From Methanobacteriota archaeon (GTDB lineage Archaea > Thermoplasmatota > Poseidoniia > Poseidoniales > Thalassarchaeaceae): a stretch of 48,460 bases of DNA. The position numbers were made by a program, and so were the translations under genes. Numbering within the stretch: the stretch's first letter is position 1; each line of letters begins with the position of its first letter. Under the pieces are notes generated by a model. It saw nothing but the letters and a program-made list of their open reading frames with translations. It was not told where the DNA came from and ran no database searches. The DNA lies in the NCBI GenBank assembly GCA_002726275.1, contig PBSO01000008.1, forward strand, positions 20,673 to 69,132, in the 5' to 3' direction. Positions 9,570 to 33,009 of the stretch are shown in pieces.

Positions 9570-10565
9570 TCAATCAGAATCTTCGCCAATCGACTTGTCA
9601 ATAGAGGATAGGCCATCTATCTCAGAACTCAGTTTCTCCTTTAGGACAGTTACCTCGTCCCTCTTGCCAACAGCGTTCTTCAGGTGGTTACTGAGCTTCT
9701 GGTATTCCTCGTCAAACTCACCAAAACTCTTCTTTATTCTGAGATGGGCATCGAGAATCTCGTTATGCAAACTAGTCATGTTCTGGGCCATCCTGACGAT
9801 CTCGAGCATGTGCATGTTGGCCATCAGGTTAACGGGAGAGCATATCACGACACCCTCTGAGGCGGCCCAACGAACAGTAGCCGACTCGTTTTCTATGAGG
9901 TATTCGTAAACTCCCATCGATGGAATGTACATGTAAGCTACTTCATGGGTGCCCTTTCCAGGTTGCACGTAGTCGGACTTTATTTTGTTAACATGGTTCT
10001 TGACGTCATTTCTGAATGTTGTTTGCAGCTTCTTCACTGTTTCAACTTGGGATGCGGGGGTGTCCTGTATTTTGTTGTAGGAGTCATACACGAACTTCGA
10101 GTCCACAATCAATATCTTTCCATCGGGCGTTCTGATGTGTGCATCCGGCTTAAGATTCCCCAGCTCCTTGACTTCGGAACGAATGCTAACGTGGGGAAAG
10201 GTCTCTCGCAGCTCCTCCTCGAGGTGCCATTCCCCCCATGCCGCTCTCCTGCTCTTGGTAGCCACCATCTGATTGAACTTCCTCGTGGCTTCAGTCATAT
10301 CCCTGGATAAGTCAGTGAAGGCCCCGATTCTCTCGGAAAACCCTCCTTCTCCAGTAAAACTAGCACCCAAGGCCGTCTGCATTTCTTCAGTATTGGGTAT
10401 TTTCAGGGCCTGGGCAATATCCGTAGTAGTTGGAAATTTCAACGCCTGCCCAATCTCTATTGCAGTGGGTGGATCTTTCCGTTCCCTCAGCATCATCAGA
10501 TTTGCGAACATTAGTATGATGATAATGACGATTCCCGCCAATACCATGGCCATCTCAGCCTCCAT
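9570..10565 (-). CDS. rmuC: DNA recombination protein RmuC family, N-terminal membrane anchor
   Basis: ORF 9570..10613 begins with TTG; the first ATG is at 10565 (MEAEMAMVLAGIVIIIILMF...). Coiled-coil region, then a nuclease-like core PDAHIRTPDGKILIVDSKF...AYMYIPSMGVYEY typical of RmuC. Confidence 0.75.
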   Translation of the reverse strand: MEAEMAMVLAGIVIIIILMFANLMMLRERKDPPTAIEIGQALKFPTTTDIAQALKIPNTEEMQTALGASFTGEGGFSERIGAFTDLSRDMTEATRKFNQMVATKSRRAAWGEWHLEEELRETFPHVSIRSEVKELGNLKPDAHIRTPDGKILIVDSKFVYDSYNKIQDTPASQVETVKKLQTTFRNDVKNHVNKIKSDYVQPGKGTHEVAYMYIPSMGVYEYLIENESATVRWAASEGVVICSPVNLMANMHMLEIVRMAQNMTSLHNEILDAHLRIKKSFGEFDEEYQKLSNHLKNAVGKRDEVTVLKEKLSSEIDGLSSIDKSIGEDSD

Positions 10566-10646
10566 GAAAACAATAGCAATATCGGGAGTACTTGAACCTA
10601 GAGGAGGTTCCAAGACGGATGCAATTAGGTACTGGCAACTATCGCC

Positions 10647-11789
10647 ATGGTTTGTATGGCTACGCTGGGAAGGGTTCGATGCGCCATATTAGGTTCACGC
10701 GGCTTGGTCGCTCAGAGACTATTGCAGAGACTCGCAAATCATAGTTGGCTGCATCCAGTAGCGGTAATCGGCTCTCCCTCAACATCAGGCATGAGGCTCT
10801 GCGACTTGCCTTGGTCCCCCGAAGAGCAGAGCCCCGAGCTCCCTGAAATAACAGTCAGGGAAATTGGGGATCCCCAGGAACTGGCACAGAGACTCTTATC
10901 AGAGGGCATTAGGATAGTATTCTCCGCACTCCCTGAAGAACCCGCAGCCATCGTCGAAGAGGCTCTCGCAAGTGCTGGACTGGTCGTTATTAGCCACTCC
11001 ATTATTCATAGGTTGGAGGGGCATATCCCATTGATCGTACCAGAGGTCAATGCGAACCACCTCGAACTTCTCGTTCACCAGAACCAATACGAGGGGGGGA
11101 AAATAGTCTCGTGTAGTGGCTGCATGACGGTGCCTCTGGCAATCACTCTCTCGCCCCTCGACACGAAAATAGGAATTGACAGGGTGAGAATTTCCACGGA
11201 GCAATCTCTTTCCGGAGGGGGGAGGGGCATGTTGGCCGAGAGTAGGTCGGGCACCATTTTCTCTGGCGAGATAGATGGCGAGTCGGGCAGTGTAATCGAT
11301 GAACTGCTCAGGATTCTCGGAAAGGTGGATTCGCTCGACGTCACTAGTTCTGAGATTGACATTGAAGCAAGTTGCCAGAGGGTCAACAGGGAATACGGGC
11401 ACTTGGCTAGGGTTGAGGTGTTACTTCAAAGAGAAGTCAGTGCCCACGAGGTAATCAGAACTTGGACCGGCTTCAAGTCTAGGGCCCAGGAACTAGACCT
11501 CCCCTCAGCATGCCTCGAACCAATCCACTTTGTCAAGAACCCCGGCGATGTCGAGGAAGCAAGATGGGTTGGGGGACGCAGCCGCTCACCAAGCGAGGAC
11601 CTCCGTGCTGCCATGGCAGTAGCGGTGGGGGACATACAAGTCTCCGGAAGAAATCTGACTTACACAACTGTAGCAGATAATACAATCAGAGGGGCTGCAG
11701 GTTATAGCGTACTAATCGCTGAATTAATGCTTGCAGAGGGCATTATTCATGACTCAAACCACCTCTTGTCCAATATCCAGAATCAATAG
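10647..11789 (+). CDS. asd: Aspartate-semialdehyde dehydrogenase (archaeal type)
   Basis: N-terminal Rossmann ILGSRGLVAQRLLQRL, active-site Cys region IVSCSGCMTVPLA, C-terminal DNTIRGAAGYSVLIAEL. A related malonyl-CoA-reductase-type activity cannot be excluded from sequence alone. Confidence 0.75.
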   Translation: MVCMATLGRVRCAILGSRGLVAQRLLQRLANHSWLHPVAVIGSPSTSGMRLCDLPWSPEEQSPELPEITVREIGDPQELAQRLLSEGIRIVFSALPEEPAAIVEEALASAGLVVISHSIIHRLEGHIPLIVPEVNANHLELLVHQNQYEGGKIVSCSGCMTVPLAITLSPLDTKIGIDRVRISTEQSLSGGGRGMLAESRSGTIFSGEIDGESGSVIDELLRILGKVDSLDVTSSEIDIEASCQRVNREYGHLARVEVLLQREVSAHEVIRTWTGFKSRAQELDLPSACLEPIHFVKNPGDVEEARWVGGRSRSPSEDLRAAMAVAVGDIQVSGRNLTYTTVADNTIRGAAGYSVLIAELMLAEGIIHDSNHLLSNIQNQ

Positions 11790-11831
11790 TCGAGATGCAG
11801 TAGTTCAATCACCTGATTGCCATCCGGGGGC

Positions 11832-12446
11832 ATGCGCTTGCGACAGTTGGCCATGCTGCTCTCCAAGTTGGAGGCATGCGAGAGTAGGAATCTCGAACTG
11901 GAGCAATACCCAACTTCAGGAGAACTCGCTGCTAGATGGTTGTCCGATATCGTGGCTTTTGGGGATCTCGCGGAGGGGTGCACGGTGGCCGACCTCGGCT
12001 CGGGTAACGGGATACTGGGAATTGGTGCCCTTCACCTCGGTGCTAGCAGAGCAATAATGATCGATTCAGACGTCGAATGCTGCGAGGTCTCCAAAAGAAA
12101 CATCAGAACAATCGACGACCCCAAGTTCTGTGATGTTTTCGAGTCTGACATAGCTTCACAAGAACTCAATATCGGACCCGTCGACCTTGTAATTTCCAAT
12201 CCTCCATGGGGAAGGCAGAAAGAGGGTGCCGATGCACCATTCCTGGACTTTATTGAATCAATAGGTGCTGTCTCTCACCTGATGCACAGCGCCAACTCCA
12301 AGCACATTCGTCCAAGGTTCGAGAAGGCAGGTTGGCATGTCGAGATGTATGGTGAAGCAGACTTTGCCATTCCTGCTGCATTTGACCACCATCGCAGCTC
12401 TAGAGGGGCAACCAGAGCTGGATTTTGGAGACTTACTCCGCCATAG
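11832..12446 (+). CDS. SAM-dependent N6-adenine-type methyltransferase (COG2263 / METTL5-like predicted RNA methylase)
   Basis: ORF 11817..12446, first ATG at 11832. LEQYPTSGELAA, SAM motif I DLGSGNGILGIGA, catalytic VISNPPWG. Confidence 0.75.
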   Translation: MRLRQLAMLLSKLEACESRNLELEQYPTSGELAARWLSDIVAFGDLAEGCTVADLGSGNGILGIGALHLGASRAIMIDSDVECCEVSKRNIRTIDDPKFCDVFESDIASQELNIGPVDLVISNPPWGRQKEGADAPFLDFIESIGAVSHLMHSANSKHIRPRFEKAGWHVEMYGEADFAIPAAFDHHRSSRGATRAGFWRLTPP

Positions 12447-12489
12447 GCCGTCCGTACCGTTGATAGGGGGTTGGCTGGTGGCCCGGCCG

Positions 12490-13800
12490 ATGACAGCTAG
12501 CGCTGGTGACTTCGTAACTCCTGGAACACCCGTGGAGATTCCCGATGGCACGGAAGCCGGAAACGGTCTTACAGAGTCAAGAGAGGGCTTTGTCGCAGTA
12601 GTTCACGGAAGGCTCGTAATGGGCGACGGGGGGATCTCAGTCGACTCATCGAGACTCCCAATAAATTCACCAGAAGTGGGCGACATCGTAATTGGCGAAG
12701 TCAACAGACTCAATGAGAATGTTGCCGAAATAAGAATACTACACGTTGAGAGCAGGGAAGGCGGACATAGGAGCCTTCCAGCAATGAAACTCTTCGCAGA
12801 CATTCACGTTTCGGAGGTAGTTGACAGATTCACCCCCTCTCCAGGGGATGCGATGAGGATGCGAGACATCGTTAGGGCCAAGATCATCAAATCTGACCCA
12901 ATCCTCAAGGCTTCAACCAAAGGAAACAGCAAGCTAGGGGTACTTTCCGCACTTTGCACCCAATGCGGTGAAGACCTAGTTGCATCCGACGAGAAAGTTG
13001 ACTTCAACGTCAAGTGCAACAATTGCGACTATTCGGCCTACCGGGTCCTCTCGGATGGATTCGGGCATGGTCACGAAATCAGGTCAAAGAAATCTGAACT
13101 AAATAGATCAGGCGAGAGATGGTCACCTGAGGCAGAGGCCGGGCTCGGACATGACGGTGCCAGACCGTACCTCTCACCACTGGCCGATTTCAGGAGAGGT
13201 GCGAATCACGAGATGCCGGCCAGCGCTAAGGCAACGCGCGGAGGAAGAGGCGGCGGTCGCGGAGGAAGAGGCGGCGGTCGCGGAGGACAAGGCGGTCCAA
13301 GGAGGGAAATGCACAAGGCCGTATGCACCCTTTGCGGGTGTGATACGCAGGTACCATTCGAACCAACCCCGGGGAAGCCAATCCGCTGCCGAGATTGCAT
13401 GGATAAGGTCAAGGACGGCAGAGCCAGTAAGGAGGAACTTGCCAAGGAAAGGGAGACGATGAACGAGATGAGGGCCAAGGCACAGGCCACCATGGGAACC
13501 AAACTCTTCGTCGGCAGACTCTCCTATGACACAACCGAAGACGAACTTGTTGAGGCATTCTCCGCTCTCGGCAAGGTAAAGTCGGTTCAGGTTGCCATGG
13601 ACAGGGACTCGGGGCGCTCCAAGGGATTCGCATTCGTAACATTCTCTAACAGGGAAGAGGGACTTGCTGCTGCCAAGAAGATGAATGGGGCGGAAATGGG
13701 CGGGAGAAAAATCGTCGTAGAGGAGTCCAAACCATCTGGCGGAGGTCGCAAGGGCGGCGAGAGAAGGGGCCGTGGAGACCGAAACCGGTCGAAGCGGTGA
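12490..13800 (+). CDS. csl4: Exosome cap protein Csl4 fused to RGG box, second zinc ribbon and a C-terminal RRM domain
   Basis: ORF 12337..13800; ATG 12490 lies just after the methylase stop. Csl4 layout: GDFVTPGTPV N-domain, S1 (GDIVIGEVNRLNENVAEIRI...IHVSEV...DIVRAKII), C4 ribbon CTQCG...CNNC. Then RGGRGGGRGGRGGGRGGQGG, CTLCGCDTQVPFEPTPGKPIRCRDC, RRM with RNP2 LFVGRL and RNP1 KGFAFVTF (about 13511..13733), and an RG-rich tail. Confidence 0.8.
   Translation: MTASAGDFVTPGTPVEIPDGTEAGNGLTESREGFVAVVHGRLVMGDGGISVDSSRLPINSPEVGDIVIGEVNRLNENVAEIRILHVESREGGHRSLPAMKLFADIHVSEVVDRFTPSPGDAMRMRDIVRAKIIKSDPILKASTKGNSKLGVLSALCTQCGEDLVASDEKVDFNVKCNNCDYSAYRVLSDGFGHGHEIRSKKSELNRSGERWSPEAEAGLGHDGARPYLSPLADFRRGANHEMPASAKATRGGRGGGRGGRGGGRGGQGGPRREMHKAVCTLCGCDTQVPFEPTPGKPIRCRDCMDKVKDGRASKEELAKERETMNEMRAKAQATMGTKLFVGRLSYDTTEDELVEAFSALGKVKSVQVAMDRDSGRSKGFAFVTFSNREEGLAAAKKMNGAEMGGRKIVVEESKPSGGGRKGGERRGRGDRNRSKR
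13237..13288 (+). repeat. Perfect 21-nt tandem repeat (about 2.4 copies) encoding the RGG box
   Basis: cgcggaggaagaggcggcggt at 13237..13257 and 13258..13278. A third partial copy diverges at 13288. Confidence 0.9.
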
Positions 13801-15616
13801 AGGCCTGTTGACATCTCAGAGGCACGTGGAAGCTCTCGAAGGGTGGCTGGTCCTAGATGGATATGAGGACGAGCCTGCAGCCTTCGGAGTGCCAAATTAC
13901 GTTGGTTTCCACATTAGGTATATTTGCGGCGTCCTAGAGAGTAGAGGAATCCAATACACGTACATGACAGTAGACGAGTGGAGGCTCCGATTCAAGTCGA
14001 GACTATCCGATCCGGGCGAGAGGGACTCGATCAGGAATGAGCTAGGGGGGCTGTCCGGGGCGGTATTGTTGGCCGGAGCAGTAGTCCCCGGTAAATATGT
14101 GAGAGGAACTCCCATCAGCCTACGTGAGACTAACTCCTTCCTGTCGTCCATCCCTGCAAATATCCCAGTTCTTTGCGGAGGATGGGCAATAAGGCATTGG
14201 AGGGGGGATGGCTGGACTCCATTACGACAAAATCTATTCATCACAGTCCAGGACACTGATGCGACTCTCGAATACCACCTTTCTACGGGAACTTGGTCCA
14301 ATAGGCGCAGAACTCCGGAACAGTGGTCAAAGTGGGCGCTTCTCGGCGCTTCTTCTAAGGCCGTAACTCAACATCCGGACCTAGTTTCACCAACCGGCGA
14401 CCGAGGGCCATTGATGTACGAGGTCGAACTCTATCAGGGATGTGTCCGATTCAAGCGTGGTTGTAAATTCTGTATCGAGCCCAAGAAGGGCTTACCACTG
14501 TGGAGGTCAGAGGGTGACGTTATTGATGAGATAACCATGGCGATAGACTCGGGCGTAAGGAATGTGAGAGTAGGTGGGGCGACGGACATCTACACGTATC
14601 GCGCAGACGGAGTCGAAGACCTCGAATATCCGATACCCAATCCCGAGCCAATATCACGAGTCCTCAGTGAAATAAGGGAGGACGAGAGGCTGGAGATCCT
14701 ACACGTGGACAATGCAAACCCCTCAATTATCGCTGAGAATATCGAACCCTCGACCGAGATAACCAAATCGCTCGTGGAAAACCTCTCCGATGGTGCCGTG
14801 TTATCATTCGGACTGGAATCAGCAGATCCTGAAGTGCATGAAAAAAACTGGCTCAATTGCAACACCGATCAGCTAATTACTGCCATCAGGCACATTAACG
14901 AGTTCGGAACTTCGAGGGGGCCAAGGGGACTGCCACATTTGCTCCCGGGTCTAAATTTCATCGCAGGACTGAAGGGAGAAACGGATGATTCCTATGGGAT
15001 GAACATGGACCTGCTGAGGAGAATAAAGTCACAGGGGCTATTGCTCAGGAGGATCAACATCAGACAAGTTGAGGGCAGGGGTTTCCAGGAAGTAAGTGAG
15101 CCCGCATTCAGGAACTTCAAGAGGGAGGTGAGAGATGATATCGATCAGCCAATGCTCGAGGAGATGCTCCCCATTGGAACCTTATTGAAGGGTGTCTGGT
15201 GGGAGTCCAACGGGAATAGGATAAGGCTCCCCGAGCACGTCACAGACCCCAAGCACAGGGACCCCTCAATACACGGCTCATCAGGAGTCTCTTTCGGGAG
15301 GCAGATGGGGGCCTATCCAATTCTAGTCGGCGTCCCTTACCTAATCCCTCTGGAAACCAGCTCCGACGTCATCGTCACAGGGCATGGAAAGAGGAGCATT
15401 TCGGCTGTCGAATCCGGTCTTGATTTCAGAAATGTCACTCAACAGCAACTAGAGGCGATTCCCGGAATCGGTCGTAAGGGGGCGTGGAGGTTGATTAGCC
15501 ACCGCGCCAAATCAGCTAGTAAGGGGATTTCTGACGAGGCATTAGATTCGGTGTTCGAGAAGTCTGGAGTTCCCCTTCCCCCTCTCGCAAGAGGGGTCCT
15601 AAGTAGTGATGCATGA
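13772..15616 (+). CDS. YgiQ/UPF0313-like radical SAM protein with C-terminal helix-hairpin-helix
   Basis: 614-aa ORF; GTG 13772 overlaps the csl4-RRM end by 29 nt (alternatives TTG about 13808, GTG about 13823). N-terminal LVLDGYEDEPAAFGVPNYVGFHIRYICGVLESRG resembles the YgiQ N-domain. Cys cluster GCVRFKRGCKFC. C-terminal QQLEAIPGIGRKGAWRLI looks like HhH. Confidence 0.7.
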   Translation: METETGRSGEGLLTSQRHVEALEGWLVLDGYEDEPAAFGVPNYVGFHIRYICGVLESRGIQYTYMTVDEWRLRFKSRLSDPGERDSIRNELGGLSGAVLLAGAVVPGKYVRGTPISLRETNSFLSSIPANIPVLCGGWAIRHWRGDGWTPLRQNLFITVQDTDATLEYHLSTGTWSNRRRTPEQWSKWALLGASSKAVTQHPDLVSPTGDRGPLMYEVELYQGCVRFKRGCKFCIEPKKGLPLWRSEGDVIDEITMAIDSGVRNVRVGGATDIYTYRADGVEDLEYPIPNPEPISRVLSEIREDERLEILHVDNANPSIIAENIEPSTEITKSLVENLSDGAVLSFGLESADPEVHEKNWLNCNTDQLITAIRHINEFGTSRGPRGLPHLLPGLNFIAGLKGETDDSYGMNMDLLRRIKSQGLLLRRINIRQVEGRGFQEVSEPAFRNFKREVRDDIDQPMLEEMLPIGTLLKGVWWESNGNRIRLPEHVTDPKHRDPSIHGSSGVSFGRQMGAYPILVGVPYLIPLETSSDVIVTGHGKRSISAVESGLDFRNVTQQQLEAIPGIGRKGAWRLISHRAKSASKGISDEALDSVFEKSGVPLPPLARGVLSSDA

Positions 15617-15735: not shown

Positions 15736-18700
15736 ATGATGGACGGGAGTAGTAAGAAAACCAGAATCGGAATCGCATTGTTTCTGTTTTCCATAATGCT
15801 CGTCTCAGTCCCAGATACTGCCTTTGCATACAGCAGTGGTAAAACTGGGAGCTCGTCAAATGGTTGTGGAGGGGGCGGCTGCCACTCGAGCACGTCAACA
15901 GTCACTCCTACTCTGACAGGACTCCCTAGCTCTGGATACGCCCCCGACTCAACATACTCCCTTTCTATAGGGGGCTCTGGCGGTTCATCTGGTTCCAGTG
16001 GGGGCTTCAATCTTGATTCAAACATTGGTACATTCTCAAACGCAGGATCTAATGCGAAACTTCAGTCGGGCGAAGTTACACACTCGAACTCAAACTCAAG
16101 GTCATGGACAGTTGATTGGACCGCTCCGTCTACTGGTGCGGGTTCGGCCATTTTCTATCTCGCCGTCAACTTCGTAGATGGCAATGGTGGGACATCCGGA
16201 GACTCATGGGGGACTGACTCGTGGTCAATCTCCGAGGCCACATCAAGTACTAATCAGACTAACTCAACCATTGGGCCGAACCAACCAGGTTCGGACAGAG
16301 GCTCAGTTTTCAGCAACTCGATATTAGATCTAGACTCAGGTTCACCGACCTTAGTCATGTCAAATGGGTCACTTGTCACATTCTCAACCATAACAACAAA
16401 CGGCTCAACTAGTAGCATTGCAGACTTCACTGAAGATGAGGTCATTTCTAACGCGGGGCAATGCGCTATCTTGCAGAACAGGACCTTGAGATGCAGGGGG
16501 ATGAACAACTATGGCCAACTAGGGCTGGGCAGTACTCTGCTGACAAATGGTACCGTAGAATTCGGCAGCAATATCCCCGTCGCAGTTTCAAACGGCAATA
16601 CTCACGCCTGTGCAATACTGGATGACGCATCTGTCAAATGCTGGGGCAGGAATAATCACGGGCAACTGGGTGATGGAAGCTACTCCAATAGGAACTCCCC
16701 TGTTGATGTCAATCTGGGAGTGAACAGGACGGCTGTTTCCATCTCAGCCGGCAACGACTTCACCTGCGCTTTGCTCAACACTGGTGACGTGAAATGCTGG
16801 GGCTACAATGGATTTGGAACTCTGGCGGATGGTTCAACTTCCGATAGCAACACCCCCGTGCCTGCAAACCACTCCACGGGGATGAGAGCTGTTTCGTTGG
16901 CCACACCGGGATACAGTGTCTGCTCGATTTTCGAGAACGGTTCTGTGTACTGCTGGGGGAGGACTTACACAACCTCGGCCGAGAACGGAGCGGTGACCAA
17001 TGGTTCAGTAAACGTTCCATTCCCTGATGGAAGGTCGGCTGTTTCGATCGACGGAACATACTGGCACACATGCGCAATTCTAGACAACGGCTCCATGAAT
17101 TGCTGGGGACTAAACACGCATGGGCAGTGGGGGGATGGCAGCTGCAGCTCCTCCATTTCCAGCAGTGGATGTACTGGTGAGGATGGCAATGCTCCAGTCC
17201 ATGTCAGTATTGCTGGTCCAGTATTGGCAATCGCGACCGGAGAGGAGTCTACATGCGCAATAGTTCAGAACTACAGCTTAGCTTGCTGGGGAGGACAAAG
17301 TGGGGAACTCGATGGAACTGGCGACGACCTCCTTCTCCCACACTGGATGAATTTCAACGGTGGTGCAGATTTGGCGTTCTCCGATCAGGATCACGATGGC
17401 GATGGAGTGTGGAACGACTTGGACACCCATATGGCAGGGGACGAGGATGGCGATGGGGTGCCAACTCCGTCCGATCCTTACCCATCTAATCCAGCTAGGT
17501 GGTTGGATTGCCCAGACGGGCAATGGGGGAGGCTGACATGCCATGACTCCCCGGCTGGACACTTCTCCCTGTCCGGTTCACTATACTACAATGAGTGCAC
17601 CGCCGGATCTTACCAGCCAGATTCTGGACAGAATGCATGCCATCTTGCATCAGCTGGTAATTATGTTGAATCATCGGCTTCCGCAACTCAGACTCAATGT
17701 TCATCTGGAACTTATCAGGGAGGGGTGGGACAAACCGGTTGTATCGATACTTCCCCTGGAAACTGGAGCCAAGGTTCTGGAGGTTACGGCGAAGCTCCAG
17801 ACTTTTCAGGCAACGCCCTGCCTAGGGTGAATCTCTCAGACAGGAGCGCCACATATCTGGGAGAGTTGAACGCAGGCCAAAATCCAGCCGATCACGGTGA
17901 CTTTTTCGCTATAGAAGTCCCTCGTAGCAGCGGTGTTTCATTGGCCCTCACTAGTCCCAGCGGTGCGAACTTCGACATCTCGATATACAACTCATCGTTG
18001 TCACTTATGACTTCGAGCAACTCTTCATCTGGGTATGATGAGGTTTCGACCAACTCAACTGGATTCTCGGGCGACTCTATCGTCTTCATTCACGTGAATA
18101 GGACCTCCGGAAACGGATCCTACGAGATGGTACTCTGGCTATTCTCAACAGATGACGGAAGCCTCGTTGGCAACTCCTCATTCCAGATTCCCGCGGAGAT
18201 CGGCGTCCGGCAATACCAGTGCTATCCTGGATCATACCAGCCAGGGTCTAGGCAATCAAGCTGCTTGGGCGCATCAGCCGGGAACTACGTCCCAACAAGC
18301 GGGTCTTCCTCTCAACTACAGTGTGAGCCCGGGACATATCAGCCGATGTACGGCCAAACTTCGTGCATAGAGGCATCAGCCGGGAACTACGTCCCATCAA
18401 GTGGGGCCTCCACTCAGACGCCAGCCTCTGCAGGATATTACGTACCGACCAACGGCTCCACTAGTCAGATTGCTTGTTTAGAGGGGACTTATCAAAACTC
18501 CACCGGACAGGCTTCTTGCATAGTCGCTGACGCAGGTTACTATGTTCCATCCAACGGATCCAGTGCCCAGACTCCCTGCTCTCCCGGGACATATCAGCCG
18601 TCCAACGGGTCCTCCTCGTGCTTGGAAGCTGACGCGGGACACTTCGTCTCCAACTCCTCCTCAACTAGTCAGGACGAATGCCCCCCTGGTAAATATCAGC

Positions 18701-21021
18701 CAAACACGGGACAATCATCTTGCTTGAACGCGTCTCCGGGCCACTATGTCCCATCCAGTGCTTCTACGGCACAGACTCCCTGCTCTGTGGGGGCCTATCA
18801 GCCTCTGCCGGGGCAGGACAAGTGTGATGGGGCATCCCCCGGACACTATGTTGACTCCGAAGGCTCATCCACACAAACACAATGTCCTCCGGGAACTTAC
18901 CAACCGTATGGTAGTCAAACTAGCTGCTTAGATTCTCCAGCCGGGCACTACGTGGACTACAGTGCGGCAGTTTCCCCCACCCCTTGTCCTGCTGGGACAT
19001 ACAATCCTTCTATGGGGTCTAGCGATATTTCCGAGTGCCTAGACGCAGACCCGGGCCATTCGGTACCGTCAAACGGCTCAATATTACAGATACCCTGTAC
19101 TTTAGGCCATTTCCAACCAAACCCGGGACAGACTTCGTGTCTAGAATCGGGACCCGGACATTTCGTACCAAGTAATGGTTCAATGACTCAGTATGAGTGT
19201 TCTGAGGGCACATACCAACCTTCATCGGCGGCAGGCAGCTGCTTAGATTCTCCAGCCGGGCACTACGTGGACTACAGTGCGGCAGTTTCCCCCACTCCCT
19301 GTCCTGCTGGGACATACAACCCCTCCGAGGGCTCTATTTCCTCGTCCTATTGCTTGGACGCCAACCCGGGGAACTATTCCTCTTCAGATGGACAAGGTCA
19401 CCAAGAGCCCTGCTCTCCCGGGACATATCAGCCATCTTCTGGATCTACCTCTTGTATGGATGCTGACGAGGGCAACTATGTTCCAACAAACTCCTCCACC
19501 GGGCAGAACCCCTGCTCCCCTGGGTCCTACCAACCATCAACCGGTTCCGTGTCCTGTATTGAAGCAGATGCCGGGAACTATGTTGAAAGCCCCGGACAAC
19601 CATCACAGACGCCTTGTTCCGAGGGGACATACAACCCCTCCGTTGGATCGAATTCCTCGGTCGACTGCAGTACTGCTGACCCTGGTCACTTCGTAGCCGA
19701 ACCAGGCTCCGAATCCCAGACCCCCTGCTCCGAGGGGACATATCAGCCAAACTCAGGCAGAACGACGTGCGTGGATGCTGATCCGGGTCACTTTGTTAGC
19801 ATCGATGGGTCGAGCAACCAGTCACAGTGCCCCGCTGGAACCTACAACCCTCAAACAGGAGCCACATCTCCCTCTGGGTGCCTCGATGCGGATCCCGGGA
19901 GCTTCGTCCAGTCACCTGCCAGTCCGGACCAGCAGAAGTGTAGTCCCGGAAGTTTCCAGCCCAATTCAGGACAGACATCATGCATTCCCACCCAACCGGG
20001 TTACTACGCGCCAAATGATGGCCAGAGTCAACAGACACCAGCTCCCCTTGACTTCTACGTCTCAGGGGCATCGAGTACAAGTTTGGAGCAGTGCCCAGAA
20101 TCGCACATCACCCTTCGGGAAGGCGCAGAATCAGCCGACGACTGCTATTCAGATTTGGATGGGGACAGGATTCACGATGACATTGACGAGGATGATGATG
20201 GCGATGGTGTCGATGACGTTCATGACTACTGCCCTCAGGGCATGATGGGTTGGATCAGCATTACGGCCAATGACTATGACGCAGATGGGTGCAAAGACTC
20301 AGAAGAGGATGACGATGATGACAACGACGGATTCCCAGATTCCGAAGACGCCCTGCCTCTCAACTTTGGTGAATGGATAGATAGTGACATGGATGGAATT
20401 GGCGATAACTCCGACACCGATGACGACAATGACGGACTTTCTGACGCTGACGAGGAGGTTGCCGGATCCAATAGGCTTGATAGCGACACTGATGATGATA
20501 ACTTCGAGGACGGCGTTGACGCATTCCCCACTGATCCTTCAGAGTGGTCCGATACGGACGGAGATGGGATAGGGGACAATGGAGACGCATTCCCCGAGGA
20601 CCCAGAAAGGCACCTGGAACCTGACAGCACTGCAATGTACGTTTTCGCGGGCGCTTCTTTGGTCGCAATTTCGCTAATCGGACTCGGGGGGTGGATGATT
20701 ATGCGCAGGAGGTCGGTCAGTGAGCCAGTTAAGGAATCGATACAAACAGAAGATGCGGACCTCATCGAAGAACCGGTCCTAATTCCAACTGCAACAGAGG
20801 AAAAATCTCATTTTGTCAGTGAGGTGTATGGAGAAACATATCCTGAGCCAGAGGAACCTCCTGCCCCCTCTATAATTTCAGCCCCAGAAGACGCTAGGAT
20901 GAATGAGCATGGACAACTAGTCTGGGTCGACCTATCAGGCGAGGTCTACTGCCAGAATCCAGATGGCAGTGTGATGTCGTTTGACCCAATGTCGGGAACT
21001 TGGAAGCCCTTTGATCAGTAA
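15736..21021 (+). CDS. Giant (1761 aa) type-I membrane surface protein: N-terminal beta-sandwich-like domain, RCC1 repeats, TSP3-like Ca-binding repeats, PPC-like domain, about 25-30 ephrin-receptor-like Cys repeats, TM helix, cytoplasmic tail
   Basis: Signal/anchor IGIALFLFSIMLVSV. RCC1 signatures CRGMNNYGQLGLGS, CWGRNNHGQLGDGS, CWGYNGFGTLADGS, CWGLNTHGQWGDGS (about 16440..17325). DxDxDGxxD runs (about 17377..17490 and 20146..20610). Reiterated C-x-PGTYQP-x3-GQ-x-SC-x-A-x-PGHYV units (about 17503..17775 and 18211..20145). TM MYVFAGASLVAISLIGLGGWMIM (about 20635..20703). Confidence 0.85.
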   Translation: MMDGSSKKTRIGIALFLFSIMLVSVPDTAFAYSSGKTGSSSNGCGGGGCHSSTSTVTPTLTGLPSSGYAPDSTYSLSIGGSGGSSGSSGGFNLDSNIGTFSNAGSNAKLQSGEVTHSNSNSRSWTVDWTAPSTGAGSAIFYLAVNFVDGNGGTSGDSWGTDSWSISEATSSTNQTNSTIGPNQPGSDRGSVFSNSILDLDSGSPTLVMSNGSLVTFSTITTNGSTSSIADFTEDEVISNAGQCAILQNRTLRCRGMNNYGQLGLGSTLLTNGTVEFGSNIPVAVSNGNTHACAILDDASVKCWGRNNHGQLGDGSYSNRNSPVDVNLGVNRTAVSISAGNDFTCALLNTGDVKCWGYNGFGTLADGSTSDSNTPVPANHSTGMRAVSLATPGYSVCSIFENGSVYCWGRTYTTSAENGAVTNGSVNVPFPDGRSAVSIDGTYWHTCAILDNGSMNCWGLNTHGQWGDGSCSSSISSSGCTGEDGNAPVHVSIAGPVLAIATGEESTCAIVQNYSLACWGGQSGELDGTGDDLLLPHWMNFNGGADLAFSDQDHDGDGVWNDLDTHMAGDEDGDGVPTPSDPYPSNPARWLDCPDGQWGRLTCHDSPAGHFSLSGSLYYNECTAGSYQPDSGQNACHLASAGNYVESSASATQTQCSSGTYQGGVGQTGCIDTSPGNWSQGSGGYGEAPDFSGNALPRVNLSDRSATYLGELNAGQNPADHGDFFAIEVPRSSGVSLALTSPSGANFDISIYNSSLSLMTSSNSSSGYDEVSTNSTGFSGDSIVFIHVNRTSGNGSYEMVLWLFSTDDGSLVGNSSFQIPAEIGVRQYQCYPGSYQPGSRQSSCLGASAGNYVPTSGSSSQLQCEPGTYQPMYGQTSCIEASAGNYVPSSGASTQTPASAGYYVPTNGSTSQIACLEGTYQNSTGQASCIVADAGYYVPSNGSSAQTPCSPGTYQPSNGSSSCLEADAGHFVSNSSSTSQDECPPGKYQPNTGQSSCLNASPGHYVPSSASTAQTPCSVGAYQPLPGQDKCDGASPGHYVDSEGSSTQTQCPPGTYQPYGSQTSCLDSPAGHYVDYSAAVSPTPCPAGTYNPSMGSSDISECLDADPGHSVPSNGSILQIPCTLGHFQPNPGQTSCLESGPGHFVPSNGSMTQYECSEGTYQPSSAAGSCLDSPAGHYVDYSAAVSPTPCPAGTYNPSEGSISSSYCLDANPGNYSSSDGQGHQEPCSPGTYQPSSGSTSCMDADEGNYVPTNSSTGQNPCSPGSYQPSTGSVSCIEADAGNYVESPGQPSQTPCSEGTYNPSVGSNSSVDCSTADPGHFVAEPGSESQTPCSEGTYQPNSGRTTCVDADPGHFVSIDGSSNQSQCPAGTYNPQTGATSPSGCLDADPGSFVQSPASPDQQKCSPGSFQPNSGQTSCIPTQPGYYAPNDGQSQQTPAPLDFYVSGASSTSLEQCPESHITLREGAESADDCYSDLDGDRIHDDIDEDDDGDGVDDVHDYCPQGMMGWISITANDYDADGCKDSEEDDDDDNDGFPDSEDALPLNFGEWIDSDMDGIGDNSDTDDDNDGLSDADEEVAGSNRLDSDTDDDNFEDGVDAFPTDPSEWSDTDGDGIGDNGDAFPEDPERHLEPDSTAMYVFAGASLVAISLIGLGGWMIMRRRSVSEPVKESIQTEDADLIEEPVLIPTATEEKSHFVSEVYGETYPEPEEPPAPSIISAPEDARMNEHGQLVWVDLSGEVYCQNPDGSVMSFDPMSGTWKPFDQ
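18922..19004 (+). repeat. Copy 1 of a near-identical 83-bp intragenic direct repeat (copy 2 at 19237..19319)
   Basis: agctgcttagattctccagccgggcactacgtggactacagtgcggcagtttcccccac... recurs 315 nt downstream with only 2 differences that I can see. Both copies encode SCLDSPAGHYVDYSAAVSPTPCPAGTYN. Confidence 0.85.
19237..19319 (+). repeat. Copy 2 of the 83-bp intragenic direct repeat
   Basis: See copy 1. The offset of 315 nt equals 105 codons, so the repeat is in frame. Confidence 0.85.
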
Positions 21022-28946: not shown

Positions 28947-29747
28947 TCATTCCTCTTCGGAAGTAGCCACCTTGGCCGCTATTAGCAGAAGTGCCGTGTG
29001 CCCAATAGGCGTGTTTCCAGGCCTGACTCCACCCTTGCTGGCCTTTACCCATCTACGTTCAATCATTTCTCCGGCCCACTCGATTACTAGTCCGTAATCC
29101 TGGGCGGTATCCCATGATTTTTCCAGTTGCGAGGTAGTGGGGCAGTAGCAAGCTATCCGCCCGCCCGCCCTCATCAGAGGCTCCACTATTGGAATTACGA
29201 GCCATGGCTCTGCCACATCGATAATTGCCGCATCGAGCTCCCCACAAATGTCAGAGACCACAGTTCCAACCTCGACGAGATCTCCGTCAATCAAGTGCCA
29301 GTCAGGAAACTCTGGTAGTATCTCAGACAGCCTATCCATGTTGATACGTCCAACCTCAGCGTGCTCTGGTCGCGACTCCACAGAGATAAGAGTCCCAGAA
29401 GAGCCCATCACATTAGCTAGGTGCATGGCAAGTCCTGCGGAGCCATGGCCCCCCTCTAGAACCCTCGAACCAACCCCGATCCCCATCCAGGAAATCAGAA
29501 AACCCGAGTCCTTCGCACCAATAACTTGGGCCCTCCGGGCCATGTTTCTCCGGGCCTCCGGGAGAGACGGATCGACTATTGTGAGAGATTTCTGTCCGAC
29601 GGTGATCCTATCTCCAAGGGAGTATCCATCTAGGAGCTTCTCCGCATCAAATCTGCCAAGCCCCTTCACCTTAACTTCCCCGGGGGCGCGCCTAAGCAGA
29701 TACGCCCTGCCATCGTCCTCTCTGAGAGCCAACCACTCGCCACTCAC
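28947..29747 (-). CDS. trmI: tRNA (adenine-N1)-methyltransferase TrmI/Gcd14 family
   Basis: 266 aa. RRAQVIGAKDSGFLISWMGIGVGSRVLEGGHGSAGLAMHLA...GTLISVESRPEHAE fits the TrmI SAM-binding region. Confidence 0.75.
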   Translation of the reverse strand: MSGEWLALREDDGRAYLLRRAPGEVKVKGLGRFDAEKLLDGYSLGDRITVGQKSLTIVDPSLPEARRNMARRAQVIGAKDSGFLISWMGIGVGSRVLEGGHGSAGLAMHLANVMGSSGTLISVESRPEHAEVGRINMDRLSEILPEFPDWHLIDGDLVEVGTVVSDICGELDAAIIDVAEPWLVIPIVEPLMRAGGRIACYCPTTSQLEKSWDTAQDYGLVIEWAGEMIERRWVKASKGGVRPGNTPIGHTALLLIAAKVATSEEE

Positions 29748-29825
29748 GTTATGCCGAGGACTTCCAGAATATCAATTACTATGGCGGCTCTTTAGAGCCG
29801 TCCCCAATGAACTTGGATGCATCAC

Positions 29826-29833
29826 GGTTATAC
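29826..29833 (+). promoter_or_regulatory. Candidate TATA box GGTTATAC 23 nt upstream of the surface-protein ATG (short-leader or leaderless transcript expected)
   Basis: Lies in the 109-nt divergent spacer between trmI and the surface-protein gene. Same core and spacing as the element upstream of eL40. Confidence 0.3.
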
Positions 29834-29856
29834 CAACGTTCACAACGCCTCAAACG

Positions 29857-32800
29857 ATGAGAGTTACCACCCTGCGGCCTGTCATCCATGCCCTCACAGT
29901 AACCGGGCTGGTGATTCTAATGTCCTATTCTGGGGCATTCTCCTTCGATTCCGAAGAAGAACCACGTCAGCAACTCCGTCAAGATGCAGTAAAGATGTAT
30001 GCCACAAGCCCCGGACACACAGTCTTCGGGGAATATGTCGGTGCGCACTGGTGCGGACCTTGCATGAGTAGTGCGTCGCCCTCGCTGGATAACCTGAAGA
30101 CTTCCAATCCAGAGGACTTCACTTTCGTCTCATTCTTCGAGGCATCTTCTGGCGGATGGCCATCTGACGGCCCGATTAATCGGAGGAGCCACATCATGGC
30201 AGCATCCTCTGGCTATCCGACATTCTCATTCGCCGATAAGCAATCTGGTACATGCTACAAGGTCGGAGCCGGTGGGACGAACTACTACGATGCCGACTAC
30301 TCGGCCGGAGGCTGCATGGACTCCGATGTTTCCAACTATGCCATGGTTCTGAGTGCCGATCACGACTCAACTACCGATGAGGTCACGATCACAGTCGACT
30401 CAACATATCTCGGCACTCAGTCATCAGTCAGCGTCTACCTTTTCGCAGCAGTTACGGAGAAGGTTGGTGGTGATGCATATGACAACGGTGTCAGGCCTCA
30501 TCACAACTTCAGGGACTGGCTGCTCAACAGCGGAAACAACGGATTCGAGCAACTGACCCTTACTCCAAACAACCCCGTTCAGAAGTCATGGACAGTCCCA
30601 ATTAGCCTAGTTAGGGCGGCCGGCGGATACACTCAATTCGAGAATTTCTGGCCGGTTGTGGCACTCATGGATGGCCCTCACAGTTCCTACAACAATTTCC
30701 TCTCATCAGCAGATCTCGACATGATCCCTCTGGTTGACGTCGGAGTCTCGGACTTCTCAATCTCAAATGCCAATGGAAACTCGGGATTCAAGCAGGGGGA
30801 CACATTGGAACTCCGGGTAGAGGCCACGAATAACGGAGTCGACCCATACAGTGATGGGGGCCAGATATCCATCCTGAGGATGGACGGTTCGGACGAGATC
30901 GAGATTGCATCGACTGGCCTGGTAAACCTCGGAGTGGGCTCCACACAGACATTCAGTACTTCATTCCAGACTAATGATATTGAGATGGTAAACCTGGGCT
31001 CAACTTCATTCAGAGTAAGGATAACAGGATTAGAGGGGGACAGGGTTGCCTCGAACAACGCCATGGATGAATACGCGATTCACGACCTCCCTCCCACCCC
31101 AAGCCAGCCGGCCGCGATTTCCAGTACAACCATAGACAGGGGCAGCTCGGTCCAATTCGAAACAAATGCCATTCCAAATGACATGGTAGATGACACTAGC
31201 TCGATGAACCCAATACTGCAGTATAGCCCAGCCGGAGGGGACCTATGGGATGACTCATGGATTAGAGATGCGGAACTTCTGGGCTCGGGGGACAATGCCA
31301 GATATCTGCACACCATAGATACCCCACTGAGTGCTCAGATTGGAGACTATGACCTGAGGGTCAAGTGGACAGACTCATCGGGACAGGTAAGCGACTGGCT
31401 GGTTTACGAAAACGCATTTGATCTGAGAAACTCATTGCCAACAGTCCTCGGCAACGGCGATTCCGAATTCGCTGGGACGCCCACTGTGAAGGTCGATACC
31501 GATGAGAGAATTTCCGTATTCGGCCTGGTAATGGATGCCGAGACTCCCCTGTCACTCTTGGAAATAGACAGCAGTTCCTCAAGCTTCATCGAGTGGGACC
31601 CAATTAACTGGGAGATAGTGGTTAGATTCAGCCAGGTCATTTTGGACAGCCAAGGAAACCCAGTGCCACAGGGAATACAATTGACGATTAGCGATGGCGA
31701 TGATACGAATAGCGGACTGTTAATGTTCAACGTCATTGAAAACGGGGCCCCACGTTGGTCCCCAATTCCCACACAATCGTTCAATGAAGGAAGCTCATCC
31801 AGTCTAGGCCTGACGACCTTCCTATCCGACACTAATGGCAACGGGCAGCAAGTATCAGTGGCTGGCATATCGTTGGAACTAATTTCAATATCGGACGAGT
31901 CCCTGGTTGAGGCTAATATCTACGGCCAGACCCTGAACATCAATGCTCTCGACGACGACGGCTTCGGGATGGTCGACATCATGGTGAGGGCCGACGATGG
32001 CAATATGGTCTCTGACACAATTATCACATTCCATGTCCTCAATGTCAATGACGCGCCTAGGATTGACTCATCCGAACTTGAGAGCATCATGCTCAAGGTG
32101 GGAGAGGAGTTCGAGTACAACCTTTTGGAAATGATCACAGATGTGGACGATCCCGACGACGAGATTTGGGTGACCGCATCTAATGTCGTCCCCGGTGCTG
32201 TAATGTTCAGCCCCATATCTGGAATCCTATCTGCGAGTTGGCAAGAGGCAGGTCAGCAGATCGTCTCGGTAACGATGGAGGACAGGCATGGTGAGTCGTC
32301 CTCAATGGACATCATATTCACAGTAGTCGACGATCTGCCACTGGAATGGGAATCTGACCTCGAGATATCCATCGATACTCAGGATTATGGGACTAATCCA
32401 ACAGTGCATATTCAGAATGTCGGGGAACTAGAATTGTCCGAAATAGAAGTGAGATGGACGGTTTGCAACAGCATTACTGGAATCTGCCACTCGGCAGGCA
32501 CATCCTACAATCTTGGGCCATTCATCATCCTCCCATTGGGTGGGGAGGGGCTCGGGGCTGGGGACTACTTCACCCTGAGTGTCTTCGCAGTAGATCAGGA
32601 TGGTTTTGACAGAGCCACACAAACCCAATTCAAGACCTTCGCCACCAAGCCATCCGAAGTGACAGAATCACCAGAAGAGGAACAGGATACAGACTCCACA
32701 TCATCCTCATCGATTTCACTACTAACTGTCGGAATTGCAGGCTCTGCACTCCTTGTCCTTGTGGCACTAGCACTCGGTCTAGCGGTCGTGCTCAGGAGAA

Positions 32801-33009
32801 AACAGGAGGTATACGATTATGACAGCTATGAGAGCGGTTACGAAAGCCAGCGGCGAGGTACGCCCGCTATCACGCCCCCAAGGCCTCCCGGACTTGCCCC
32901 ACCACCGCCTCCAATCTCTCCCAAACTGCCTCCTGAGGGGCTCCCCGAAGGCTGGTCCATGGAACAGTGGCATTACTACGGAGAAGAGTACCTAAGTAGG
33001 AGAAAGTGA
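29857..33009 (+). CDS. Type-I membrane surface protein: extracytoplasmic thioredoxin-like domain (WCGPC), CARDB and cadherin-like domains, TM helix, proline-rich cytoplasmic tail
   Basis: ORF 29248..33009, but its first 203 codons are antisense to trmI. ATG 29857 gives MRVTTLRPVIHALTVTGLVILMSY (anchor/signal). WCGPC at 30049..30063. CARDB-like VSDFSISNANGNSGFKQGDTLELRVEATNNG...SNNAMDEY. Cadherin-like LNVNDAPRIDS. TM LLTVGIAGSALLVLVALALGLAVVL. Tail PPRPPGLAPPPPPISPKLPPEGLPEGW. Confidence 0.8.
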   Translation: MRVTTLRPVIHALTVTGLVILMSYSGAFSFDSEEEPRQQLRQDAVKMYATSPGHTVFGEYVGAHWCGPCMSSASPSLDNLKTSNPEDFTFVSFFEASSGGWPSDGPINRRSHIMAASSGYPTFSFADKQSGTCYKVGAGGTNYYDADYSAGGCMDSDVSNYAMVLSADHDSTTDEVTITVDSTYLGTQSSVSVYLFAAVTEKVGGDAYDNGVRPHHNFRDWLLNSGNNGFEQLTLTPNNPVQKSWTVPISLVRAAGGYTQFENFWPVVALMDGPHSSYNNFLSSADLDMIPLVDVGVSDFSISNANGNSGFKQGDTLELRVEATNNGVDPYSDGGQISILRMDGSDEIEIASTGLVNLGVGSTQTFSTSFQTNDIEMVNLGSTSFRVRITGLEGDRVASNNAMDEYAIHDLPPTPSQPAAISSTTIDRGSSVQFETNAIPNDMVDDTSSMNPILQYSPAGGDLWDDSWIRDAELLGSGDNARYLHTIDTPLSAQIGDYDLRVKWTDSSGQVSDWLVYENAFDLRNSLPTVLGNGDSEFAGTPTVKVDTDERISVFGLVMDAETPLSLLEIDSSSSSFIEWDPINWEIVVRFSQVILDSQGNPVPQGIQLTISDGDDTNSGLLMFNVIENGAPRWSPIPTQSFNEGSSSSLGLTTFLSDTNGNGQQVSVAGISLELISISDESLVEANIYGQTLNINALDDDGFGMVDIMVRADDGNMVSDTIITFHVLNVNDAPRIDSSELESIMLKVGEEFEYNLLEMITDVDDPDDEIWVTASNVVPGAVMFSPISGILSASWQEAGQQIVSVTMEDRHGESSSMDIIFTVVDDLPLEWESDLEISIDTQDYGTNPTVHIQNVGELELSEIEVRWTVCNSITGICHSAGTSYNLGPFIILPLGGEGLGAGDYFTLSVFAVDQDGFDRATQTQFKTFATKPSEVTESPEEEQDTDSTSSSSISLLTVGIAGSALLVLVALALGLAVVLRRKQEVYDYDSYESGYESQRRGTPAITPPRPPGLAPPPPPISPKLPPEGLPEGWSMEQWHYYGEEYLSRRK

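Follow-up and report, generated by a model that had tools for sequence, protein, structure and literature searches.

Archaeal exosomes, as solved, carry three cap subunits (Rrp4 and/or Csl4) on a hexamer of Rrp41 and Rrp42, and RNA is guided through the S1 pore. Of the two cap subunits that bind RNA, one is Csl4, and in the solved complexes its N-terminal domain touches the ring. To our knowledge, DnaG is the sole accessory RNA-binding subunit of the archaeal exosome, and it is recruited through Csl4. In Sulfolobus, DnaG is reported to bind the Csl4-exosome, not the Rrp4-exosome, and to confer a preference for poly(A) (PMC3672285). Here we describe a csl4 gene at 12490..13800 on the forward strand of a 48,460-nucleotide stretch of archaeal DNA (the window), in which a complete Csl4 is continued in a single open reading frame (ORF) by further predicted RNA-binding domains. 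The protein resembles the Csl4s of A. fulgidus (AF0206, PDB 2ba1/3m7n) and S. solfataricus in having an N-terminal domain, an S1 domain and a C4 zinc ribbon in the same order, in its predicted fold and in its METTL5-like gene neighbor. However, solved and typical archaeal Csl4s stop at about 180 to 197 residues, whereas this one runs 245 residues further, through an adaptor segment, an RGG box, a second ribbon, an RNA recognition motif (RRM) and an RG-rich tail. The host is a Marine Group II (MGII) archaeon (order Poseidoniales), probably of the family Thalassarchaeaceae/MGIIb; homologues come from sources named Candidatus Poseidoniales, Poseidoniia and Thalassarchaeum.

Because the Pfam EXOSC1 and S1 models stayed below threshold on the 436-residue protein, the Csl4 assignment rests on an NCBIfam model, a structure of known identity and a comparison of folds. 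The NCBIfam equivalog for Csl4 (NF034126/PRK09521) scored 98.5 bits against a cut-off of 90, with residues 7 to 191 aligned to model positions 1 to 178 of 180, and A. fulgidus Csl4 (2ba1_A) matched residues 8 to 194 over its own residues 3 to 177 of 179 (E 3.8e-14). A full-length AlphaFold2 (AF2) model from a shallow alignment resolved the Csl4 half poorly, and residues 1 to 257 were therefore modelled again on a deeper alignment of 54 homologues; here predicted local distance difference test scores (pLDDT) are 85 to 93 across the three Csl4 domains. Compared with the PDB by Foldseek, this second model matched Csl4 best, from A. fulgidus, from yeast and from human, with Rrp4 and Rrp40 ranking lower.

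The N-terminal domain (about residues 1 to 55; 12490..12654, +; pLDDT 85 to 89) is delimited by the NF034126 alignment and has 2ba1_A as its best Foldseek match. It is followed by the S1 RNA-binding domain, of the oligonucleotide/oligosaccharide-binding fold (about residues 56 to 150; 12655..12939, +), seen by profiles, AF2 and Foldseek, in which the motifs VDRF and RxRDIxRA are invariant in the homologue alignments. The C4 ribbon (about residues 151 to 191; 12940..13062, +; pLDDT 88 to 93) has cysteines C156, C159, C176 and C179, invariant in both of the MGII types described below. On profile and model evidence, residues 1 to 191 are a complete Csl4. The first-pass annotation, made from the sequence alone, had proposed the full Csl4 layout within the first 195 or so residues, and the above-cut-off NF034126 score, the 2ba1_A match and the predicted fold all agree with it; each of its four domain assignments has been confirmed by hidden Markov models, two of them also by the predicted fold, an agreement well past anything that chance would give.

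The gene is a single ORF with no interruption, as had been noted at first sight, running from an ATG at 12490 to a stop codon at 13798-13800, and its start matches the N termini of most homologues. M274 was considered as an internal start codon and rejected, because the conserved REMH of which it is part sits inside the zinc-ribbon profile match.

Immediately beyond the C4 ribbon lies a conserved segment (residues 192 to 245; 13063..13224, +) that contains LNRSGERWSPEAEAGLGHDGARPYLSPLADFRRGANHEMP. What had at first passed for a linker ahead of the RGG box turns out to be among the best-conserved parts of the protein, with 24 positions invariant across 16 homologous sequences; L204, N205, G208, R210, W211, A215, E216, D233 and R235 are invariant in both MGII types. 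The core, LNxxG(K/E)RW...AE...D.R, is recognizable in most other RRM- or ribbon-bearing Csl4s; a pattern search left P0122, P0129 and P0135 unmatched among these and found no match in Csl4 forms with an RG tail only. No Pfam or NCBIfam family matched the segment. In the AF2 model, residues 191 to 220 form short helices (pLDDT 65 to 80) and the chain beyond residue 220 is disordered (below 55). The segment is thus no mere spacer, and we take it to be an adaptor or interface.

The remaining domains correspond to motifs that the first-pass annotation had quoted, all of which were found. An RGG/RG box (residues 246 to 271; 13225..13302, +), with RGGRGGGRGGRGGGRGGQGG at residues 250 to 269, is evident in the translation and the homologue alignment and varies among homologues in both length and sequence. 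It leads into a CxxC-x17-CxxC ribbon (residues 272 to 307; 13303..13410, +; pLDDT 74 to 85), in which C279/C282 and C300/C303 are separated by exactly 17 residues (CTLCGCDTQVPFEPTPGKPIRCRDC, residues 279 to 303). TIGR04272 (48.1 bits, cut-off 36) and PF23477, zf_Tbcl_2 (49 bits, cut-off 27), both match residues 272 to 307, and the consensus CTLCG..T.VPF.PTPGKP.RCR.C is nearly invariant among homologues; this is a predicted zinc ribbon of the TIGR04272/PF23477 family. A predicted connecting alpha-helix (residues 308 to 336; 13411..13497, +; AF2 helices at 301-308 and 314-334, pLDDT about 80) joins it to the RRM (residues 337 to 412; 13498..13725, +), which has a canonical RNP2 (LFVGRL, residues 339 to 344) and RNP1 (KGFAFVTF, residues 378 to 385) and scores 74.4 bits with RRM_1 (PF00076; cut-off 20.7) over residues 339 to 408. 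The earlier calls of a CxxC-x17-CxxC ribbon and a canonical RRM are thereby upheld, all three profiles lying above their cut-offs. In the full-length AF2 model the ribbon-helix-RRM part has pLDDT 72 to 85 (79 to 85 for the RRM alone), and the RRM, with its beta-alpha-beta-beta-alpha-beta fold, superimposes on those of RBM39, HuR, TIA-1 and CIRBP with Foldseek TM-scores of 0.89 to 0.95 and a root mean square deviation of about 1 Å; the closest PDB RRMs include those of CIRBP and plant GR-RBP1. The protein ends in a basic, RG-rich tail (residues 413 to 436; 13726..13797, +), evident in translation and alignment, which is its least constrained part.

Parts of this layout are familiar from elsewhere. 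CIRBP/hnRNP A18, RBM3, plant GR-RBP1 and bacterial Rbp likewise have one canonical RRM followed by an RG- or glycine-rich tail, but those proteins are small and stand alone, whereas here an exosome subunit carries the RRM as its C-terminal module; the NCBIfam Rbp_regulator model (NF058537) scored 83.2 bits, under its cut-off of 100. In proteins of the FET family (FUS/EWS/TAF15), a flexible region that binds RNA brings together RGG boxes, a single RRM and a single C4 zinc finger. Unlike the MGII fusion, they have another domain order, a RanBP2-type finger instead of the CxxC-x17-CxxC ribbon and no exosome subunit, and no homology is implied. The Methanosarcina proteins of TIGR04272/PF23477 belong to the same ribbon family, but there the ribbon stands alone, and here it lies between an RGG box and an RRM. 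For two such small CxxC-x17-CxxC proteins of M. mazei, zinc binding has been demonstrated (PMC12704099).

A reader may suspect that a chimeric join or a frameshift merged csl4 with a neighboring RRM gene; we consider this so improbable that we count it as already refuted. At least 25 contigs from many samples encode the identical 436-residue protein (P0001); they come from separate ENA and JGI assemblies made with different assemblers, and the neighbors are the same each time. A search of 5.8 billion proteins gave more than 120 full-length homologues of 388 to 479 residues (most 417 to 446), 56 to 86% identical and all with ribbon and RRM. The architecture of the window protein is found in hundreds of clusters at 90% identity; the junction is in frame in hundreds of orthologous clusters, and the junction segment is itself the most conserved part. 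In comparisons with the two closest homologues, in which synonymous sites are saturated, the ratio of nonsynonymous to synonymous divergence (dN/dS) is 0.03 to 0.05 in the Csl4 half and 0.03 in the extension; being low in both halves, it indicates that the frame has been kept by selection across the junction. Taken part by part, the ribbon has a ratio of 0.01, the RRM 0.05 and the terminal RG tail 0.17 to 0.20, and the extension is under purifying selection. Homologues 56 to 88% identical stay in a single frame, with no stop codon or frameshift between the two halves, which the first-pass annotation had named as the kind of finding that would undo its proposal.

Faulty joins and fragments do occur in the databases, which is what can be said for the artefact. 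One protein of 219 residues (P0171) is an obvious chimera, in which an RmuC-like N terminus runs into the Csl4 adaptor segment and the first part of the ribbon. Since rmuC is a near neighbor on the opposite strand (window 9570-10613), this looks like the product of mis-assembly or of a rearrangement of the contig. Short fragments of 115 residues called "RNA-binding protein" are also found. Such entries, labelled "RNA-binding protein [Poseidoniales]," were considered as stand-alone RRM genes and rejected, since they are C-terminal fragments of a two-RRM Csl4.

That two-RRM Csl4 brings us to how the tail varies. A HMMER scan of 1.84 billion representatives gave 302 relatives of residues 1 to 249. 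Below the family of the window protein comes a tier of long Csl4s, 387 to 487 residues and 34 to 47% identical, most with two RRMs and no ribbon and one with a single RRM. The two-RRM form comprises 304 clusters at E <1e-20, with members named as Csl4 of Ca. Poseidonia or Poseidoniaceae (MGIIa); by taxon name, Ca. Thalassarchaeum has the window type and Ca. Poseidonia the two-RRM type. Two-RRM examples (P0133, P0436 and P0444, with the gene at 10001-11416 in loci L010-L012) end in S(K/R)RE(L/M)xAxxEEG, which is absent from the window protein. In another relative (P0127, 460 residues, on a 3.0-Mb ENA contig) the Csl4 part is followed by a pair of CxxC-x17-CxxC ribbons and a long stretch of RGG; this protein lacks an RRM and has a C-terminal REEG motif as in the two-RRM type. 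In other archaea, P0170, P0221 and P0253 are Csl4s with only an RG/RGG-rich C-terminal tail of 60 to 100 residues, so that a low-complexity RNA-binding tail on Csl4 may reach beyond the MGII fusions. The outermost relatives are ordinary Csl4s of 180 to 197 residues.

In MGIIa the two-RRM csl4 sits at the locus of the window gene, flanked likewise by the methyltransferase and radical S-adenosylmethionine (SAM) genes and with the NMD3-PGI-M23 block again upstream. Because they share this locus, the ribbon-plus-RRM and two-RRM forms are orthologues, and their tails were remodelled once MGIIa and MGIIb had separated; at this conserved position in MGII genomes, the fusion gene is csl4. The window RRM is about equally similar to RRM1 and RRM2 of the two-RRM forms, so that the direction of cassette exchange cannot be read from it. 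The survey of Csl4 architectures that had been proposed at the outset bears out the fusion in relatives and adds that the tail is built of modules, which are not the same in the two MGII families.

These proteins are in the databases already, under automatic and often misleading names; several homologues of the window type, for example, carry the IMG label "cold-inducible RNA-binding protein." In a pangenome of 250 MGII genomes, RRP4, RRP41 and RRP42 are core genes, present in 137 to 138 of the 158 genomes of one clade and in 85 to 86 of the 92 of the other (Tully 2019, PMC6336850 Supplementary Data 10). The tables of that supplement have no CSL4/EXOSC1 entry. They do list a "CIRBP" cluster, present in 143 genomes, all of them MGIIb, and a "PABPC" cluster, present in 77 genomes, all of them MGIIa; the text discusses neither (PMC6336850). 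Probably these are the two fusion forms of Csl4 under wrong KEGG names. "CIRBP" and "nucleolin" are in any case misnomers for a 436-residue protein with an N-terminal Csl4 that falls below the NF058537 cut-off. Clusters named "HNRNPL" (MGIIb) and "RBM17" (both clades) are also among the core genes (PMC6336850), which suggests further RRM-type proteins in MGII; with CIRBP, HNRNPL, PABPC and RBM17 core clusters, the initial statement that RRMs are rare in archaea does not hold for this lineage. A full-text literature search found no description of an archaeal Csl4-RRM or Csl4-zinc-ribbon fusion, and the literature it found on the CxxC-x17-CxxC domain concerned solely the stand-alone Methanosarcina small proteins (PMC12704099). 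The architecture is widespread, as the first-pass annotation had allowed, but within this search it appeared only under automatic names.

We think it probable that the fusion is the MGII csl4 orthologue and that its tail captures substrate RNA at the exosome cap, the role of the tail being inferred from its domains. The Csl4 part would sit on the Rrp41/Rrp42 ring as usual, and the adaptor segment would anchor a flexible arm, one for each Csl4, at the periphery of the cap. The single-strand binders of the arm (RGG box, ribbon, RRM and RG tail) would then capture RNA, concentrate it locally around the S1 pore and feed it in, and the choice of RNAs for degradation or A-tailing would in this way lie with the arm. 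Arms that differ by lineage would point to substrate preferences that differ too. In Sulfolobus, Csl4-DnaG is likewise reported to place an extra RNA-binding module at the cap specifically via Csl4 and to alter RNA preference (PMC3672285, PMC4227792), but DnaG is a separate protein, bound noncovalently, whereas the MGII module is covalently fused and made of unrelated domains. More tentatively, and short of an even chance in our estimate, one can envision that MGII has hard-wired substrate-recognition cofactors into the cap. The adaptor would then be a docking platform for exchanged cassettes (ribbon plus RRM in MGIIb, two RRMs plus the RELxAxxEEG motif in MGIIa, two ribbons plus RGG elsewhere), a cis counterpart of the RRM adaptor complexes of eukaryotes, and may replace or supplement DnaG. 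The RRM-containing cofactors of eukaryotic exosomes can be likened in role to the MGII tail.

One could instead suppose that the Csl4 module has been re-used as an S1 plus zinc-ribbon unit in an exosome-independent RNA-binding protein of several domains, which would serve as a chaperone or regulator of RNA in the manner of cold-shock or glycine-rich proteins. An RRM with an RG-rich tail is indeed the layout of stress-responsive RNA chaperones, with CIRBP and GR-RBP1 among the nearest structures; KEGG and IMG file these proteins as CIRBP, nucleolin or "RNA-binding protein," and binding of the fusion to the ring is a prediction. We nonetheless judge this unlikely. The N-terminal domain has been retained with invariant residues, and we know of no role for it in Csl4 besides contact with the ring. 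At every locus examined the fusion follows the METTL5-like methyltransferase gene, the neighbor typical of archaeal csl4. The closest ordinary-length Csl4 representatives are only about 30 to 37% identical, and the sole one with an organism name belongs to Archaeoglobales. The MGII core tables, too, have Rrp4, Rrp41 and Rrp42 but no other CSL4 (PMC6336850).

The neighborhood also invites a narrower reading, which we hold to be about as improbable: that the tail steers the exosome to pre-rRNA or ribosomes and couples 3' trimming or tailing to the METTL5-type methyltransferase and the radical-SAM enzyme. The trio of methyltransferase, csl4 and radical-SAM genes is conserved with short spacers or overlap, the methyltransferase is of the METTL5 family, an NMD3 homologue lies 5 kb upstream of csl4 within the conserved block, and Sulfolobus DnaG is reported to enable exosome tailing of rRNA (PMC4227792). 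Gene proximity is, however, the sole evidence, and the idea is a sub-case of substrate capture at the cap, not an alternative to it. That the conserved gene pairing hints at rRNA- or ribosome-linked substrates is speculation.

Several points weigh against capture of RNA at the cap by an exosome-bound fusion. Binding of the ring is a prediction, as are RNA binding by the tail and its specificity, and the adaptor is only partly ordered in the model (pLDDT <55 past residue 220). The equation of the "CIRBP" cluster with the fusion gene comes from its naming; the MGII exosome core itself rests on KEGG annotations in one paper's supplement (PMC6336850); and the same genome might still encode a second, stand-alone csl4, since almost none of the nearest Csl4 representatives of ordinary length carry the name of an organism. 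Rrp41 was sought in genome contigs with five PDB Rrp41 sequences and was found in many Thermoplasmatota; the 80 best-scoring loci, the only ones kept, came from Archaeoglobi, Methanosarcinales, Methanomassiliicoccales and other Thermoplasmata, with no Poseidoniales among them. Because only these were kept, other lineages alone were returned, and the scan is uninformative on MGII; neither Rrp41 nor Rrp42 was recovered for this genome or for a named MGII genome. The same scan of viral contigs had no match. In metagenome contigs, a degenerate DNA pattern for (D/E)RK(R/K)PGPDRR gave 120 loci, 116 of them with an Rrp41-like match, and none of the 120 could be assigned to MGII by named relatives or by tetranucleotide composition, the latter mainly tracking G+C content. 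The Undinarchaeota paper and its supplements contain no MGII-specific exosome data.

As for the surroundings of the gene, the METTL5-family (PH1948/Ta1320-like) methyltransferase gene lies just upstream (11817..12446, +; PDB 1wy7, E 1.9e-23; human METTL5 6h2u, E 1.3e-19; Ta1320, E 7e-14). Downstream, a radical-SAM gene encoding about 600 residues (13772..15616, +) is probably cotranscribed with csl4, since its 5' end overlaps the csl4 3' end in this window; it is the downstream neighbor in MGIIa and MGIIb loci alike. The radical-SAM protein has, by eye, a helix-hairpin-helix-like C terminus and gave no NCBIfam match. Other MGIIb contigs have the order NMD3, PGI, M23 peptidase, RmuC, Asd, methyltransferase, csl4 fusion, radical SAM and a giant RCC1-repeat protein. 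In the window, the last position is taken by a protein of 1761 residues (15736-21021), whose N-terminal domain is of the choice-of-anchor V type and which also has RCC1 and ephrin-receptor-like repeats. A gene of similar size follows the radical-SAM gene in the two other contigs of the window type that were examined (RCC1 domains were recorded for one), and in MGIIa it does not.

Comparison of the upstream regions of five loci of the window type revealed a conserved TATA-like element, TTGATAGGGGG, 20 to 30 nucleotides upstream of the csl4 ATG (12460..12470, +). It is possibly csl4's own promoter, for a leaderless mRNA, although the indication from sequence is weak. Its conservation accounts for a conserved "IGG" peptide in over-extended gene calls. 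MGIIa loci have an AGGA-type Shine-Dalgarno-like sequence instead. Elsewhere in the window, an ORF for 1253 residues (29248-33009, +) has no Pfam or NCBIfam match; its true start is probably further downstream, because its 5' part overlaps an ORF for a GCD14/Trm61-like tRNA methyltransferase on the opposite strand (28947-29747, -).

MGII, which are uncultured, rank with the most abundant archaea in surface waters of the ocean. Since automatic pipelines name these proteins CIRBP, PABPC, nucleolin or "CxxC-x17-CxxC domain protein," MGII seems to be without Csl4 and to possess clade-specific, eukaryote-like RNA-binding proteins; the apparent absence misleads comparative studies, and correcting the annotation would be useful. 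The tail has been remodelled recently, as two sister families differ in it at one orthologous locus, and the adaptor motif that they share is a candidate for a new interaction module. How archaeal exosomes choose their substrates is poorly understood, and fusions found across the order make MGII a natural experiment on cap-mediated recruitment, with tails that are amenable to expression, swapping and deletion in reconstituted exosomes. The domain fusion, with the function we infer for it, offers a solid and testable lead for specialists in archaeal RNA decay.

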